DNA from: a phage
Assembly: GCA_016693855.1 (NCBI GenBank)
Contig: GCA_016693855.1_4844.1
DNA: 45,498 bases
Strand: one strand, 5' to 3'
A program made the translations under genes and the position numbers. The notes under the pieces were generated by a model. The model ran no database searches, was not told the DNA's origin, and saw only the letters and a program-made list of their open reading frames with translations. Positions 15,851 to 25,644 of this stretch are shown piece after piece. Positions within the stretch are counted from its first letter, which is position 1, and each line of letters begins with the position of its first letter.

Positions 15851-17771
15851 TTTGTTCTCCTGTAAAATCTTTTCTGTGGATTATGTCACGGCCTTTATCG
15901 TTGATACGATGCGTGATGCGTTTTGGCGCCTTAATCAATCCCGCATACATCATGAATTGCTTGGCGTTCTGGCATTTCAGGATTTTCCCGGCCATTGACT
16001 TATCATCAAGGTGAGGAAAGATAGCCTTCGCCTTAAACATGTTTTTCATGTGAGTTGCGCCGCCATAAGGGTAGAAAACCTCATTAGCCCATCCTTCTTT
16101 GCCATCACAACGATTAATCCAGTATCGATACAAAACCCCTTCCCCGTCCTTCGTTAACTGAACCTTGAAATCCATAACATCAGCCCACTCATTATCGGTA
16201 TACGCACGCTCATTAAGCGCCGCATTAGGGTCACGCAAAACATGATCGCAATGTCGGCAATAACGCGCAGTAGGGTCGTTTTTAGTACCACATCCATCAT
16301 CAAAAATACGTATTCCATGCTTATCGAAACCGCAACGGATGTAACTGAAAAACTCCTCGCAGCGACCATCTGGAGATACCGGGTCTTTCCCTATGCATCG
16401 ACGCGCATATGGGCTGTTCATTGTTCCACATTTTGGACACGGAACCTGTTCGCCACTGCGTTTTGAACGTTGCGCTTCAGCCTCTTCCAGAATTGGGTCT
16501 TCATACAGCTGACCAAGCTCAAACATCGTGCCTGAGAAATCCAGAACAAGATGGTCTTCTTTATGATACCCTGCATCAATTTGCTCTTTCTTCAGCAGGC
16601 GCATCCCGCGACCAAGCAACTGAACAAGAAGGGTGAGCGACATTATTTTTCTTAATATCACGCTTGTATCCCAAAGCGGGATGTTGACTCCTGTCGTAAG
16701 CGCGGCTATCTGGAATGTGTATTTTATTTTTCCAGTGTATGCATCCTTTAGTGCCTTACGTCTTGCTTTTTTCCCCATATCTTCAGTGACAATGGCGTAG
16801 CTTCCTTCTGGCAGATATTTAGCAGCTTCTAAACAATGCTTCTTGCCTGCACAGGTAATTAACACTCCATTTCTATCTTTTGTAAGCTCCATCACTTTAA
16901 GCATGATTTTCTGTGTGAGAGTGCCTTGTTCAAGTATTTCTTCCTGCATCTGCTTAAGTTGTTCAGCAGTGAAATCCTGCGTTCCGTCAACATCAGAGCC
17001 ATGAAATGATGAAAGGTCGTATTGCAAATCATCAACATCATGAAGTCCAAAGATTGTTGGAACAACAAATCCGCGATCTACCATGTACTTTGTGTCAATG
17101 TTTATTATTTCATTCTTCCAATACGCACCTTTCATTGACTCGGTGCCACGGAAAGGGCTTCCAGTGAATCCGATAGTTATCATGTCATGTCCATACTTTG
17201 CCTTACAGCGCCGATTTAACTCGGTCAGTATAACGCCATACTGTGTTGTTGGTTCACCACCGACAATGTCCTGCCACGGTACTTGGTGCCCTTCATCGCA
17301 AAGGCAAAATCTTGGGGTGAAATCACTCAACCCACCTTTCTTAACGTCACCATTTGATTCATCTTTTTTATCAAAAAGTGCGTTCACGATTGTTCCTTCA
17401 GTGCCGCATATAATAGGATATGCTGTGCTTTTCCTGCCAAGAGATGCACTATAAAGAGAGTTTTTTACACCGCACTCCCACATCATTTCAGCATTCTGCT
17501 CGGCTATTTCCCCCTGCCTTGAAATTACAAGACCATCCCACCACATATCCTGAAATCTACTGCAAAGCATTGAAATCATCACCGTCTTCCCTGATGAAAC
17601 CGACGCTGTAACATAGCTTGGTTCAGGTTTCTTGCCAAAATTACGAATAACCTCAGCGCACTTTGCGTAAACAAGCCATTGGTAATCATATGGCTCTATG
17701 GAGCCTAGTTTTATTGATTTCTTTAATTTATCTATATCAATCTCTGAAATCATCTTGTCTATTTTATGCAT
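15837..17771 (-). CDS. SF2 DNA helicase with C-terminal zinc-ribbon region
   Basis: 644 aa; Walker A-like …ASVSSGKTV…, DExH-like …LCDEGHQ…, and C-terminal Cys clusters CPKCG…C and CRHCDH. Confidence 0.8.
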   Translation of the reverse strand: MHKIDKMISEIDIDKLKKSIKLGSIEPYDYQWLVYAKCAEVIRNFGKKPEPSYVTASVSSGKTVMISMLCSRFQDMWWDGLVISRQGEIAEQNAEMMWECGVKNSLYSASLGRKSTAYPIICGTEGTIVNALFDKKDESNGDVKKGGLSDFTPRFCLCDEGHQVPWQDIVGGEPTTQYGVILTELNRRCKAKYGHDMITIGFTGSPFRGTESMKGAYWKNEIINIDTKYMVDRGFVVPTIFGLHDVDDLQYDLSSFHGSDVDGTQDFTAEQLKQMQEEILEQGTLTQKIMLKVMELTKDRNGVLITCAGKKHCLEAAKYLPEGSYAIVTEDMGKKARRKALKDAYTGKIKYTFQIAALTTGVNIPLWDTSVILRKIMSLTLLVQLLGRGMRLLKKEQIDAGYHKEDHLVLDFSGTMFELGQLYEDPILEEAEAQRSKRSGEQVPCPKCGTMNSPYARRCIGKDPVSPDGRCEEFFSYIRCGFDKHGIRIFDDGCGTKNDPTARYCRHCDHVLRDPNAALNERAYTDNEWADVMDFKVQLTKDGEGVLYRYWINRCDGKEGWANEVFYPYGGATHMKNMFKAKAIFPHLDDKSMAGKILKCQNAKQFMMYAGLIKAPKRITHRINDKGRDIIHRKDFTGEQSEAA

Positions 17772-18292
17772 TATTTTACCCTACCAAATTCACCATGATA
17801 CTTTTTTGATGCTTCTGCATAAACCTTTGCTGCTTCTTCTTTTGTATCATATCTTCCTAGCCATATTTTTTTATTATTTACATGTATAGAGCAAGTCCAT
17901 TTTTTTGTTTGCTTGCAAAAACCAACACCCTTTACACCAGAGGTGTTATGGCTTGGAATCCTCATGTTTCTTAAGTTTCCATTAAAGTTTGTTTCTCTTA
18001 GGTTTTCTATCCTGTTATTCAATCTATTTCCATCTTTATGGTCTATTATTAACTCAGGCCAATAACCATGCACTAAAGCCCATATTATTCTGTGAACCTT
18101 TATATCAACACCTAAAAAACCAACCTGAAGATATCCACTTACAGTCTTCGAACCTGCAATAGCGCCACGTTTAACCCTGTTTGTTGTTGTTCTTTTCCAT
18201 ATGAGATTTATTCCGTCATATGAAAAATACTCCCGCAACGTAGATACTGGTATTGACTTCTCTTTTAACTTCATTAATTCGAAATCATTCAC
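17771..18292 (-). CDS. HNH homing endonuclease with AP2-like DNA-binding domain
   Basis: …HRIIWALVHGYWPELIIDHKDGNRLNNRIENLRE… HNH motif followed by …SGVKGVGFCKQTKKWTCSI…LGRYDTKEEAAKVY… AP2-type domain; free-standing, immediately upstream of the helicase. Confidence 0.85.
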   Translation of the reverse strand: MNDFELMKLKEKSIPVSTLREYFSYDGINLIWKRTTTNRVKRGAIAGSKTVSGYLQVGFLGVDIKVHRIIWALVHGYWPELIIDHKDGNRLNNRIENLRETNFNGNLRNMRIPSHNTSGVKGVGFCKQTKKWTCSIHVNNKKIWLGRYDTKEEAAKVYAEASKKYHGEFGRVK

Positions 18293-19336: not shown

Positions 19337-19801
19337 TTATGGGACGAGTCCGAGCCTTTTTCTTTCTTCGTAAAGAGCATACTCTGGATTGCCGGTTTTC
19401 TTATAAAGAATCTCCTTCAGCCTCAAAATCTCTTTCGTCGTTGCTGCCGCACCTATAACCATCGTCTCTCCGAACAAGTCAGAATAACTCAATGACTCAA
19501 GCTTCACCATGTCGTTGAAGTAGTCATCTTTTCTCGTCGCATGAAGCGACATCAGATATGGTTTATTTCTCTTATTCTTCACCCAATACACACGGTTAAC
19601 GCCATCAAGATAACCGCAACTCATTGAGCGAGCCACAAACTCTCGTGATAGGCCAAGTGCAAACTCGCCAATATCGACGCCAATTTGTTCAGCCATTCTT
19701 TTGCACTGTGTATTGCCAATTACAAATTTCTCAAGCTGAACCCTTGTGAATGTTGCATTTCCTTCACAGAATTTAAATATTGATGTTTTCATATTTATCA
19801 C
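19337..19801 (-). CDS. hypothetical protein (coupled to upstream P-loop protein gene)
   Basis: 154 aa; start overlaps the stop of the 523-aa gene (ATGA), suggesting translational coupling; no recognisable motif. Confidence 0.5.
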   Translation of the reverse strand: MINMKTSIFKFCEGNATFTRVQLEKFVIGNTQCKRMAEQIGVDIGEFALGLSREFVARSMSCGYLDGVNRVYWVKNKRNKPYLMSLHATRKDDYFNDMVKLESLSYSDLFGETMVIGAAATTKEILRLKEILYKKTGNPEYALYEERKRLGLVP

Positions 19802-21369
19802 CGAATAAGTTCAGGATTGACATACACATTACTGTCAACAACGCATACCATATTCATGGCCTCAAGCTTTGGAAGTAACTGCTCTTTTATTTTCTTCGAA
19901 ATTCCGCCTTGCGCCCTGAATGGCTTAACTTTCCTTGCTTTTTCAAGTACTCTTGACATGCTTACGTAACCCTTAGATTGTCTTGCCAGCTCTATCGTTA
20001 TTTCTGATAGTTTTTTCAGCTCGACTTCCTCACCAGCAGACCCGGATGATGTTGTTGCTGCAACATATGATTCAATTAACTCGCCAAAAATAGCGAGCGC
20101 CTCTTCCGCTGTCTCAGCAGAAATGACCTTTGATTTCTTTTCTCGACCGTCAGGTGAAAACCAATTGCGTATTACGTGAAGTACTGATGCAATCCTTACA
20201 ACCTGCTTATCCATCTTCCCGATCATACCCCTTAGCATTGAATGCCCATAAAGACCGCCATCAGCCATGTGTGGCTCTGCCTGTTGTCTTGCTGAATAAA
20301 TTGCCATTATCGCCTCATGCTCAAGAGACAGAACAACCTTTTCTTCAGTCATAATGTTGTGAATGAGTCTGTAGTATTGAGACATCAACTCTTTATCAAT
20401 TGGTGTATATGCTGGCGTTCCATCGTCATTTATGAACACGCGCTGACCAAGCATTGATTTTTCACGAAGCAGAAGGAATCGCTCACTAACACCATTAGAC
20501 CTTTCACCAACCTGCATGATTGAAAGCACGGTTTCATCCTGAGCTATAACATTTATGCACCCGTTTGCAACAAATGAAAGGTTATTTGAACCGTTAGCTC
20601 GCGCTGAAGAAACGTATTCCATATCCCACGCCTTAAGAACTGTCTCGCAGCTTGCTGTGGAATTGGCATTTGAGTAAGTAAGACCAAGCAATGTATTAAC
20701 AGCGGTAGCCTCAGCAGAAATAACGGCAAATGACCCCTGTAGAGCGTTAAGCCTGCTCAATCCTTCAGGTGTTGAGTCTGTCACAGGGAAAACAATATCA
20801 CCGAGTTTTTCAATCTCGCTTTCCAGTTTTTCCTTATCTTCGTACATGATAGCCAGTGCGGTTTTGTTTTGTTCTGATTTTATCTCCCTCTCAATCTCGC
20901 GCAGCTTGGCCAATTTTCTTTTTCTCTCTTTTCTTCTCACCTCATTAATTCTCTCATTCTCACAAACAAGAGGTGCTGTAGAGTATTGGTTTACGGAACT
21001 CTTCCCTGTCGATGGTGGCTGGCTAATGACAACATACAGTGATGTTGGCTGTTCACTTCCGTGATAGTTAACAAAGAATCGACCAAGCATGGCTGCTGAA
21101 ACGCTTCCTAAAAAATTCAGATATGCAGAAGAAGCTGGAAACTGTATTGATTTGGCAATGTTTCTTGATAGCTTACCTACAACATCAATATCATTACCAA
21201 TGCATACGTTAGTATATCCAGCATCGTTATCATCAAAGTCCTTTGGTGAGTGCCAGTAGTTTTGTGACGCTCCATATCCATTTGCTTCTATCGCAACACT
21301 CAACACAGACCGCTTGCTTTTTGCTGCCATCTCAACAATATCTTCTGGCATTAGCTTTTTCTCAAACAC
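19798..21369 (-). CDS. P-loop NTPase, DUF3987/SF3-helicase-like (putative replication protein)
   Basis: 523 aa; Walker A-like …LYVVISQPPSTGKSSV…; size and P-loop context resemble DUF3987/primase-associated helicase-like proteins of mobile elements; first large gene downstream of the iteron region. Family assignment from memory, unverified. Confidence 0.45.
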   Translation of the reverse strand: MFEKKLMPEDIVEMAAKSKRSVLSVAIEANGYGASQNYWHSPKDFDDNDAGYTNVCIGNDIDVVGKLSRNIAKSIQFPASSAYLNFLGSVSAAMLGRFFVNYHGSEQPTSLYVVISQPPSTGKSSVNQYSTAPLVCENERINEVRRKERKRKLAKLREIEREIKSEQNKTALAIMYEDKEKLESEIEKLGDIVFPVTDSTPEGLSRLNALQGSFAVISAEATAVNTLLGLTYSNANSTASCETVLKAWDMEYVSSARANGSNNLSFVANGCINVIAQDETVLSIMQVGERSNGVSERFLLLREKSMLGQRVFINDDGTPAYTPIDKELMSQYYRLIHNIMTEEKVVLSLEHEAIMAIYSARQQAEPHMADGGLYGHSMLRGMIGKMDKQVVRIASVLHVIRNWFSPDGREKKSKVISAETAEEALAIFGELIESYVAATTSSGSAGEEVELKKLSEITIELARQSKGYVSMSRVLEKARKVKPFRAQGGISKKIKEQLLPKLEAMNMVCVVDSNVYVNPELIR

Positions 21370-21379
21370 AGAGCACTCC

Positions 21380-21601
21380 TTATTTGATGCGGGTAATTTT
21401 CAATTCGCCTTCGCGCAGGCGAGTAACAAACATTAACGAGTGATCGTTTGCTGCTTTATTCAGTGCAGCTCTCACACCTGCAACAGTCATGCTCCTTTCT
21501 GATATTTCACCTAACGTAATAACGCATTCTCCACCAACATCCACGAAGCGAACTTTATCCCATACAAATTTCATGCTTGAGCCTGCGCGGTAATCTTTCA
21601 T
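21380..21601 (-). CDS. hypothetical small protein (first gene of leftward early operon)
   Basis: 73 aa ORF immediately leftward of the iteron-rich control region; no motif recognised. Confidence 0.45.
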   Translation of the reverse strand: MKDYRAGSSMKFVWDKVRFVDVGGECVITLGEISERSMTVAGVRAALNKAANDHSLMFVTRLREGELKITRIK

Positions 21602-21793
21602 GTCAAATCCTCATTCTGGAATCTGTATATTACTATATAGAAAGCAATGGAGAACTTCAATACCGCTGCTCTTAAATCACAAAGGTAATGGATAGCACAA
21701 ATTGCTAAAATCTATGCTACCTGTTTATTCGTTTCGTGGTATATTTCAGTCATCAACACGCAAGTGCTTGACAGTTAAAAGAAAAATCAAAAA

Positions 21794-22237
21794 TCCCGCC
21801 CAAAAGCCCTGAAAAATGGGGCGAAACATTCCAGATAAAAATCAATAAGTTACAAAATCTTCGCCCATTATCGCCCAAAAGAAGGGCGAAACATTTCTAT
21901 TTAAATTCAACAACTTAAACGATTTTCGCCCATTTTTAAGTTGTGGGGGTATATATGCATTGTGTAAGAGAGAAAAATAGTAGGTATGAAATGAATGTGT
22001 ATAGGGGTATGGGCAAAATGGGCGAAATGTATGATATGAGCGAAAACGAACATAGTTAGTAAGTATGATATATAGGTATGAGTAAATATAAATAACTAAT
22101 AATATTAATAACTTACATATATATATTACTTATTATTACTTATTATCTATAAGAGAAAACCGCTCAAAAAATGAGCAAAATTTTCGCCCACAATTTAGGG
22201 CGAACATAGGGCGAAGATGGGCAAGAGTGGGCGGAAC
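21794..22237. repeat. iteron array (GGGCGAA / TTCGCCC, >10 copies) flanking an AT-rich core; candidate origin / early control region
   Basis: Direct reading: ATGGGGCGAAAC (21816), GGGCGAAAC (21884), GGGCAAAATGGGCGAAATG (22011), GGGCGAACATAGGGCGAAGATGGGCAAGAGTGGGCGGAAC (22198-22237) in forward orientation; TTCGCCCATT (21860), TCGCCCAAAA (21871), TTTTCGCCCATTTT (21924), TTTTCGCCCACAA (22181) in reverse; AT-rich segment ~22050-22160 with tandem TACTTATTAT repeat; no ORF >=60 aa in 21601-22264. Confidence 0.6.
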
Positions 22238-22268
22238 GGCAAAATCATTGCGACACCTGAAAATCACA

Positions 22269-22297
22269 TTGACGTAGAATTGTTATTGATGTAGATT
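22269..22297 (+). promoter_or_regulatory. early rightward promoter: TTGACG-N17-TAGATT built from two tandem TTGAYGTAGAWT motif copies
   Basis: TTGACGTAGAAT at 22269-22280 and TTGATGTAGATT at 22286-22297; the TTGACG of copy 1 and TAGATT of copy 2 are spaced 17 nt apart like sigma70 -35/-10 elements; ~30 nt upstream of the first rightward ORF. Confidence 0.5.
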
Positions 22298-22327
22298 GAA
22301 CTCATCGAAACAAACGAGGATGAAGAG

Positions 22328-22474
22328 ATGAAAATCAAAGACCGTGAAGAATTTGAAGATGCACAGTCTATGGCGCGCATTGCAGTTGAGCGCACAAACA
22401 ACAGCATTCCTGCAGAAGCATTCTGGAACGCAGCAATGCAGGCTTTAATCTCTGCGTATGGGTTAAGCAAATGA
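22328..22474 (+). CDS. hypothetical small protein (48 aa)
   Basis: ATG at 22328 with GAGGA upstream; below the 60-aa cutoff of the ORF track; first ORF after the promoter. A 31-aa hydrophobic ORF (22471-22566) follows with ATGA overlap. Confidence 0.3.
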   Translation: MKIKDREEFEDAQSMARIAVERTNNSIPAEAFWNAAMQALISAYGLSK

Positions 22475-22569
22475 CAGGCGCAACATTCGAACTCATCGCC
22501 AGCCTGGTTGTCGTGGCATTCATCATTATCGCAGTGGCAGTTTCAAAATCAGGGTATAAGGAGTAACAA

Positions 22570-22752
22570 ATGGCAAAGACTATCTATCGTCGCGAGAAAC
22601 TGGAGCCAGAACTCGGTCACGTTGGCGCGCAGAACTTTATGAGCAAGCAGGCACGCAATGCAATGGGATCTATCCGTGTAAATCGCGTTGTGAGAGTGTT
22701 TAATGGTGAAGGTAAGCGAAGAGTAATGGATGAGCTGATTATTGTGTTCTGA
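22570..22752 (+). CDS. hypothetical protein
   Basis: 60 aa ORF with AGGAG RBS upstream; part of the rightward early operon. Confidence 0.4.
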   Translation: MAKTIYRREKLEPELGHVGAQNFMSKQARNAMGSIRVNRVVRVFNGEGKRRVMDELIIVF

Positions 22753-24284: not shown

Positions 24285-24593
24285 CGATATTAGCGACGCA
24301 ATGCAAAACATGTGGGAGCGCTATTGGGACAGCATGAAGACATGTCACTACATGATGGTGCAGATAGGCAATTACATTGAGGTTATTCCTGATAATGGTG
24401 TGCATGATATTAAATACATGTGCTCAACTAGGGCTTTCTCTAATGCAGACAACTAAACAGAAAGTTTGGGGAGTTGCTAAGGAGGAAAACTTAGACCAGT
24501 TCATTGCAGCAGTTGCAAAAACATTCCCCGAAGCAATTGAGATTGTCCACATTCAGTCGCCACGCAACGATGTGTGGTGTTGGAGTAATAAAA

Positions 24594-25082
24594 ATGACGA
24601 AAGAAAGAGATTGGAATGAGGTCTTTGAATATATAGATGGGCGCTTAATTTGGAAGATCAAACCTTGCAATAACGTAAAAGAATACTCACCAGCTGGGTC
24701 AACGCGAAACGATGGCTACCTGCATGTTGGTTTTATGAAAAAACTACATATGGTTCATAGAATTATATGGGAAATGCATAACGGAAAAATACCAGATGGG
24801 ATGGAGATTGACCATGTAAACCATAACAAAATGGACAACAGAATTGAGAATTTGCGGCTTGTTCGGCACGGAAGCAACCAAAGGAATAAATCTAAACAGG
24901 GGAATAACACTAGTGGTGTGACTGGTGTAACATGGAGCAGAAGGGATAAAAAGTGGATTGCGCAGATAATGGTTGAAAGAAAAAACATCCATCTTGGATA
25001 CTTCAGTGACTTCAACTCCGCAGTGGCGGCAAGGAAAAATGCGGAAAAAGAGCATCGCTTTCACAAGAACCATGGTATATAA
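24594..25082 (+). CDS. HNH homing endonuclease with AP2-like domain
   Basis: …HRIIWEMHNGKIPDGMEIDHVNHNKMDNRIENLRLV… HNH motif; …SGVTGVTWSRRDKKWIAQI…LGYFSDFNSAVAARKNAE… AP2-type domain; close paralog of the ORF at 28588-29064. Confidence 0.85.
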   Translation: MTKERDWNEVFEYIDGRLIWKIKPCNNVKEYSPAGSTRNDGYLHVGFMKKLHMVHRIIWEMHNGKIPDGMEIDHVNHNKMDNRIENLRLVRHGSNQRNKSKQGNNTSGVTGVTWSRRDKKWIAQIMVERKNIHLGYFSDFNSAVAARKNAEKEHRFHKNHGI

Positions 25083-25197: not shown

Positions 25198-25644
25198 ATG
25201 GCTAATCCAAACCCTGTCATGAAATTTTCCTCTGAGTACCAGCCTGCTGGCAGAGGATTAAGCTACAGAAACAGGCTTATTGAAGCATTAAAGCGATGCG
25301 GGCTTGGCGAGGAGGAATTCCTTGACGCATTCATCAGGACGTCAATCAGGATGACTGAGGAAAACCCGACTCAGGGTGTGCAAATGCTGAAGGAAATATT
25401 CCTGCGCATCAGCCCTGTGCAAAAAAGTATGGCACCTCCGGTTAATTTTAAATACCGCAAAGATGCCACGCCAGTAGAGCAGATAGAGGACGTCATTCAA
25501 TCTGTCTCCAGTGGCGAGCTTCCAATTGATGTTGCGTCTCAGGTTGTGTCTATGATTAAGGTTGGTCTTGACGTGAAAGAATTAACCGAACTCGCCGCGC
25601 GCCTTGAGCGACTAGAGAAATTACTGGAGCAGCAGAATGCGTGA
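25198..25644 (+). CDS. terminase small subunit (putative, by position)
   Basis: 148 aa ORF directly upstream of the terminase large subunit gene; no confident motif. Confidence 0.35.
   Translation: MANPNPVMKFSSEYQPAGRGLSYRNRLIEALKRCGLGEEEFLDAFIRTSIRMTEENPTQGVQMLKEIFLRISPVQKSMAPPVNFKYRKDATPVEQIEDVIQSVSSGELPIDVASQVVSMIKVGLDVKELTELAARLERLEKLLEQQNA

Follow-up and report, generated by a model that had tools for sequence, protein, structure and literature searches.

The closest described counterparts of the locus reported here are the replication origins of SaPIs and E. coli PICIs. SaPI Rep proteins (SF3; SF6 in SaPI2) are self-loading helicase-initiators whose C-terminal winged helix binds iterons of 5-6 nt, and SaPI origins contain 6-12 iterons, in both directions, around a central AT-rich region (PMC9371898). 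In both SaPIs and E. coli PICIs, a self-loading Rep helicase contacts, via a winged helix, two iteron sets flanking an AT region, and these origins were shown to drive replication (PMC9371898; PMC6092414). DUF3987 proteins are SF6 helicases, distantly related to MCM, with a C-terminal wHTH, and were predicted to be replicative helicases of phages (Kazlauskas et al., PMC4889955); for a PriCT-DUF3987 protein 5'-3' helicase activity was demonstrated (PMC11724360). The MCM-like helicase Cch of SCCmec (PMC7581432; PDB 5dgk) offers a further comparison, from a different host and a different type of element.

The DNA studied here is a window of 45,498 bp (the whole stretch that was analysed) from a virulent siphophage of the Skatevirus/Segzyvirus cluster, infecting Salmonella and E. 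coli. Between its divergent operons lies a region in which copies of a short word surround an AT-rich core, and sequence comparison makes it probable that this region is the replication origin of the phage, read by the adjoining MCM-like helicase. No description of an origin was found in the full-text literature on Skatevirus-like phages. The region shares with SaPIs and PICIs the two iteron sets, in both orientations, around AT-rich DNA, and a nearby AAA+ helicase that, according to its structural model, carries a C-terminal winged helix like Rep (SF3, or SF6/MCM-like in SaPI2). Iteron word and helicase also appear to be cognate, with pairs that differ between elements. However, SaPI and PICI origins are situated immediately downstream of rep, whereas the phage region lies on the upstream side of the helicase gene, with a 73-aa ORF and a promoter in between. 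The locus would belong to a kind that is already known, the iteron origin with a self-loading helicase-initiator; its position between divergent promoters, upstream of the helicase operon, is unusual.

In the archaeal oriC, inverted ORB elements that are read by the winged helix of Orc1/Cdc6 flank a DUE, at which the MCM helicase is loaded. The phage locus resembles this arrangement in its winged-helix recognition boxes (predicted here), its AT-rich unwinding element and its MCM-fold helicase. The archaeal recogniser (Orc1/Cdc6) and helicase (MCM) are separate proteins, whereas the phage protein appears to combine both, and there is no sequence relationship between the archaeal boxes and the phage iterons. 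As in lambda ori and in the iteron plasmids pSC101, R6K and RK2, the iterons lie beside an AT-rich region and a candidate initiator is encoded by the element itself. Lambda-like, too, is the swapping of replication modules as cassettes among related phages, and an IHF-like site is present, several iteron plasmids using IHF as an accessory factor. However, in lambda the iterons are part of the O gene and the O protein brings in the host DnaB through P, whereas the phage repeats are intergenic; a Pfam search of the neighbouring genes for O/P-like or Rep_3 domains gave none. Plasmid Rep proteins are of the WH-WH type, lack helicase activity and use DnaA boxes, whereas the phage candidate is a helicase and no DnaA box (one mismatch allowed) was detected between 21600 and 22330.

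The genes on both sides were as the earlier note had described them. The leftward genes encode the 73-aa ORF, a 523-aa DUF3987 protein, a 154-aa ORF, an HNH endonuclease, a SNF2-type helicase, exonuclease VIII, Erf and SSB, with a zinc-ribbon primase on the strand opposite to these genes. Small early genes make up the start of the rightward operon, followed by the terminase approximately 3 kb downstream. The gap between the divergent start codons, which had been given as an ORF-free region of 650 bp, is indeed poor in ORFs, but its size is 726 bp (21602-22327); it holds only ORFs of 41-48 aa, none of which is conserved in relatives. A search of 21300-22600 against the Rfam families gave no match. 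The coordinates of the features are listed in Table 1.

Table 1. Features of the repeat region and its surroundings (positions in the 45,498-bp window; functional assignments are putative)
Feature	Position	Strand	Remarks
Exchangeable replication-initiation cassette	19340..22268		Between conserved primase gene (left) and conserved early operon (right)
154-aa ORF	19337..19801	-	Downstream of helicase; last cassette gene; border at approximately 19339
523-aa DUF3987 / MCM-like AAA+ helicase	19798..21369	-	Modelled C-terminal winged helix at approximately residues 447-517; proposed iteron-binding initiator
73-aa ORF	21380..21601	-	First gene of leftward operon; in cassette
Leftward operon promoter-like site	21632..21660	-	TTGAAG-17-TATAGT; consensus match only
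Left iteron arm	21794..21932		Copies at 21794(-), 21818(+), 21859(-), 21869(-), 21883(+), 21924(-)
IHF-core-like site AATCAATAAGTTA	21840..21852	+	Inside first inverted iteron pair; predicted binding
Strand-asymmetric stretch	21932..22081	+	6 C in 150 nt; holds three same-strand iterons
Middle iterons	22010(+), 22019(+), 22037(+)		Adjoin AT core, within C-poor stretch
AT-rich core, putative DNA-unwinding element	22050..22165		12-15% GC, 115 bp
Right iteron arm	22172..22236		Copies at 22172(+, weak), 22182(-), 22197(+), 22208(+), 22218(+), 22228(+)
Rightward early operon promoter-like site	22269..22297	+	TTGACG-17-TAGATT; just outside swapped cassette

Allowing up to 2 mismatches, 15 9-mers resembling TGGGCGAAA were found between 21794 and 22236, 10 on the plus and 5 on the minus strand. 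The 7-mer GGGCGAA occurs 14 times in the 45.5-kb window, 8 of these inside 21819-22215; the chance expectation for the entire 45.5 kb is 4.66 ± 1.8, and none of 100 shuffled sequences reached 14. When the most frequent 7-mer was counted per 450 nt, the repeat region had 8 copies and every other interval had 4 or less. The earlier note had counted at least ten copies of GGGCGAA(A) in both orientations; this holds when one mismatch is allowed (12 copies in the array), but not for exact matches (8), and the bounds of 21794-22237 match the first and last repeat copy. Against the six or more short repeats in a non-coding stretch that we take to mark a cluster of iterons, the region has 8 exact, 12 near-exact and 15 loose copies in 443 bp. 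Nine iterons lie to the left of the AT core and six to the right, with both strands represented on each side. The left arm consists of two 65-bp units, each of them an inverted pair of iterons approximately 34 bp apart, and the positions of its iterons are kept in the related loci L003-L006. In the right arm the last four plus-strand iterons are spaced 11, 10 and 10 bp.

The flanked AT-rich segment of more than 100 bp reported in the earlier note is the extreme of the entire sequence. The 100 nt at 22052 have a G + C content of 14%, the minimum of the window (mean 46.5 ± 5.9), and form its least stable duplex by nearest-neighbour calculation (-93.9 versus -137 ± 7.1 kcal/mol). The tandem repeat noticed in this segment is TACTTATTAT, present twice at 22127-22146. 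Between the left iteron arm and the AT core lies the most strand-asymmetric stretch of the genome, which may be linked to the choice of strand in helicase loading or priming. The putative IHF site is the sole match in the entire window to the IHF core consensus WATCAANNNNTTR. Such matches were present in the equivalent region of 20 of the 24 related loci, in all repeat types, and absent from the flanking coding DNA, which is consistent with IHF binding at this site. Both promoter-like sites have the repeats upstream of them: the nearest iteron is 33 bp upstream of the rightward -35 and approximately 135 bp upstream of the leftward -35, and the hexamers are not overlapped. The minimum of the cumulative GC skew also falls at the repeat region, but the direction of transcription switches at the same place, and we therefore gave the skew no independent weight.

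The 523-aa protein matches Pfam family PF13148 (DUF3987) with 128 bits (cut-off 27) over residues 78-434. At E ≤ 1e-5 it has 151 homologues, among which those of T1-like phages, e.g. LL5, herni, Jahat and RCIP0001, are 52-57% identical. A sequence search of the PDB gave nothing meaningful, and a plasmid collection searched for homologues yielded only one, phage-like, record. AlphaFold2, with an alignment of 70 sequences, gave a model with a mean pLDDT of 90 and a pTM of 0.87, in which the protein has an MCM-like AAA+ core followed by a C-terminal winged helix; the modelled residues 447-517 have the topology helix-strand-helix-helix-strand-strand. In the Walker A motif G122-K123-S124 is invariant and the surrounding PPSTGKS (118-124) is highly conserved. 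Glu220 of Walker B is also invariant, but the window protein and the three homologues nearest to it have Ala in place of Asp219; the Asp (VISDE) is present in 65 of the 70 homologues. Compared with the homologue of phage SB28, conservation is lowest in two blocks, residues 1-60 and 451-480 (each approximately 47% identical), while residues 91-300 of the ATPase core are 73-90% identical. Since these two blocks diverge most, both terminal domains are candidate determinants of specificity.

To compare the locus with its relatives, related loci were gathered by means of the conserved word in the rightward promoter, because the remainder of the intergenic DNA is too diverged or of too low complexity: with the intergenic DNA as query, blastn against phage records aligned no more than the last 60-80 bp, i.e. 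this promoter. A search for related loci with the helicase gave only 4 viral contigs. The comparison set comprised 28 sequences, the window and 27 related loci, and the layout of short repeats, in both orientations, around an AT core sits at the same genome position in every relative for which the sequence was long enough. Each of the 28 sequences contained 3-10 copies of one word and none of the other five. The words were GGGCGAA in type A (the window and L003-L005), GGGCATA in type A' (SB28), TTACCGG in type B (Bas81 and swi2), GGATAAA in types C and C' (LPSTLL, Skate and seszw), CGTGGGG in types D and D' (DS8 and others) and GGGAAGC in type E (Sf11 and others). In all 9 loci that were mapped copy by copy, which represent all six words, the iterons lie on both sides of a core with a G + C content of 11-16%.

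The repeat word co-varies with the neighbouring large P-loop protein and with no other gene that was tested. Where the large protein is 98% identical, the word is unchanged. In SB28, of which the large protein is 70% identical, the repeats are at homologous positions and have changed in concert from GGGCGAA to GGGCA(T/C)A. Large proteins that are 34% identical, or without detectable similarity, come with unrelated words. Within types the small ORF next to the helicase does not follow the iterons: types C and C' share their iterons and have large proteins with 3-4 differing residues, while their small ORFs are only 23% identical; types D and D' have large proteins with 4-5 differing residues and keep the CGTGGGG core (with flanking bases that are mostly CA in D and mostly AA in D'), while their small ORFs show no relationship. 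Within type D, the ORF downstream of the helicase varies as well. On the other side, the proteins of the early rightward genes have 85-98% identity between all types, whatever the word, and the rightward promoter-like site is 88-93% conserved. The terminase genes are equally indifferent to the word. The TerS-position proteins of LPSTLL (type C) and Sf11 (type E) are 99-100% identical to that of the window over 106 and 126 aligned residues, the TerL of swi2 (type B) is 97% identical, and one repeat type includes loci with 45%- as well as 100%-identical TerS-position proteins.

Two binders of the repeats had been proposed from the sequence, the 523-aa and the 73-aa protein. The former is the likely one, as the word tracks this protein. 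The latter is unlikely, because its counterpart is replaced or only 23% identical while the iterons or their core word stay; as the reader of the iterons we rejected it on the C/C' and D/D' comparisons. The 73-aa ORF has no match in Pfam, and its homologues in types A', B and E are 36-39% identical.

Similarity of the window to relatives of every type (86-93%) ends at approximately 19338, 30 nt past the primase stop codon, and returns at 22249-22269, immediately left of the rightward -35. The unit of exchange is therefore a cassette of 2.9 kb with sharp borders, which runs from the 154-aa ORF through the helicase and 73-aa ORF genes to the leftward promoter and takes in the entire repeat/AT region. 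Most likely, origin and helicase are exchanged together as this one cassette among related phages. Part of the linkage between repeats and helicase is trivial, since a 5' regulatory region is normally inherited together with its operon. All 55 of the listed genome-reduced mutants of phage seszw (down to 37.7 kb) have lost nothing of the intergenic region, the small ORF or the helicase, the sole deletion in that span being a 31-aa rightward gene; this retention is weak evidence because the mutant screen targeted genes and not intergenic DNA.

A similar arrangement was found in T1-like phages. In T1 (L035, NC_005833), the DUF3987 helicase (ST9) belongs to a leftward operon with its start at the right end of the record. 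When the end of the record is connected to its start (48675-48836 + 1-540), a divergent gap of 702 bp results. The AT core of this gap has 10% GC in its lowest 80 nt and includes the 100 nt with the lowest G + C content of the genome (14%); it is flanked by 6 of the 17 genomic copies of GATTAAC and 3 of the 4 of ATTACGC. The start of the T1 record, with its terminal repeat annotation, falls inside the divergent gap. Resembling the arrangement of T1, but less clean, are those of TLS (L036/L037, NC_009540), where a core of 14% GC at the junction of end and start is flanked by TCGTGAA, CACACAAAA and TAGACCGATTGGTCTA in tandem, and of Klebsiella phage RCIP0001 (L030, 187-850), where a core of approximately 15% GC is flanked by GTTTGGTAA and TTGCGCAA. 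In the papers on the T1-like phages TLS and SU57 no origin or repeats were found (PMC11447400; PMC7718038), and the 2024 TLS paper states that there are no such repeats anywhere in the TLS genome. A broader generalisation, to which we lean with slightly more doubt than confidence, is that the DUF3987 helicase acts as a self-loading initiator and sets the origin in Skatevirus-like phages as well as in T1-like Drexlerviridae (T1, TLS, Webervirus), and that virulent siphophages carry at least six interchangeable origin/initiator specificity groups.

The same repeats could be read as an array of operators that controls the divergent early promoters, with the helicase possibly regulating its own synthesis and no replication start at this site. 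They do lie between two promoter-like sites and are inherited together with the leftward promoter, and in iteron plasmids the initiators that bind the iterons commonly autoregulate. It is nevertheless hard to see why repression should need 15 sites over 440 bp around the most meltable segment of the genome, when no repeat overlaps a promoter hexamer and a Pfam search of the adjacent ORFs showed no HTH repressor domain. Moreover, the rightward promoter and the genes behind it stay conserved whatever the repeat type, and the word tracks a helicase instead of a repressor. We consider operators without an origin improbable; a role in (auto)regulation may exist alongside origin function. The earlier note had left the choice between an origin and a multi-operator switch open, and the comparative evidence (covariation with the helicase, free promoter hexamers, least stable duplex, a layout like that of the experimentally studied SaPI/PICI origins) favours the origin.

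That the repeats form a pac site, with binding sites for the small terminase flanking the cleavage region as in P1 pac, is suggested by the deposited T1 record, which starts in the equivalent intergenic region, and by the terminase genes approximately 3 kb downstream in the rightward operon. We rejected this reading as very unlikely because the repeats show no covariation with the terminase genes, the repeat type assorting independently of both the TerS-position protein and TerL; given where the T1 record starts, a pac site that does not use the repeats may be nearby. Least credible of all, to the point of being negligible, is a chance cluster or a decayed coding sequence. In the window and in some relatives the region does accommodate short ORFs (41-88 aa), one of which bears a membrane-protein annotation in seszw and Skate, but such ORFs are not conserved, while the positions and orientations of the repeats and the AT core are. 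Chance is contradicted by the shuffled sequences, of which none reached the repeat count, and by the cluster being the unique maximum of the genome.

As a replication origin, the region could work as follows. The 523-aa helicase would bind the TGGGCGAAA iterons to the left and right of the AT core, making contact through its predicted C-terminal winged helix and possibly also through its small N-terminal helical domain. A bend induced by IHF in the left arm would help to melt the 115-bp AT core, and negative supercoiling between the two divergent early promoters may contribute to this. The helicase would then load itself at the melted core, probably as two hexamers, after which the phage primase, SSB and the host polymerase would begin bidirectional synthesis. 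Counted against the origin reading are the Ala that replaces the Walker B Asp in this lineage, the location of the origin upstream of the helicase gene with a small ORF in between, unlike SaPIs and PICIs, and the large proteins of types B and C, which are not assignable to DUF3987. The latter have no match in Pfam, and they were left outside the family because hhalign against the DUF3987 profile was not significant.

If the region is indeed the origin, both the start of replication and the initiator would be identified for a large group of enterobacterial siphophages that are widely isolated. This group includes therapy candidates, members of the BASEL collection and the genome-reduction chassis seszw, and probably extends to T1. 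The phage would also be an example of a bacterial virus with an MCM-like helicase that reads its own origin. The specificity variants of the iteron word form an informative natural series, in which GGGCGAA and GGGCATA, with proteins that are 70% identical, are natural variants that make the recognition code directly testable. For phage engineering it would follow that the 2.9-kb cassette has to be kept or swapped as a whole. If the groups, at least six in number, are real, they would represent replicon types comparable to the incompatibility groups of plasmids, shaping co-infection, recombination and parasitism by satellites.

Some further observations were made on the same genomes. The type C iteron GGATAAA (TTTATCC on the opposite strand; L002, L017 and L020, types C/C') overlaps the first part of the DnaA-box consensus TTATCCACA. 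Gene 51 of seszw (L033/L034, 2072-2311; also present in Skate), an annotated 'putative membrane protein' of 80 aa, falls within the AT-rich origin-like region; other repeat types do not conserve it, and this call is probably spurious. The primase gene, which lies outside the cassette, stays conserved though its partner helicase is swapped. The 148-aa TerS-position protein of the window (25198-25644, plus strand) occurs in two forms in the relatives, approximately 45% and 99-100% identical to it, and these forms assort independently of TerL and of the replication cassette.

Finally, the window contains two HNH-type endonuclease genes, one at 17771-18292 (minus strand) with HNH and AP2 domains according to Pfam, and one at 24504-25082 (plus strand) assigned by PHROGs only. 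The first overlies the intervals with the second- and third-lowest G + C content of the genome (24-28%; at 17706 and 17953). Together, the two genes suggest recent insertions of homing endonucleases in the replication and packaging regions.
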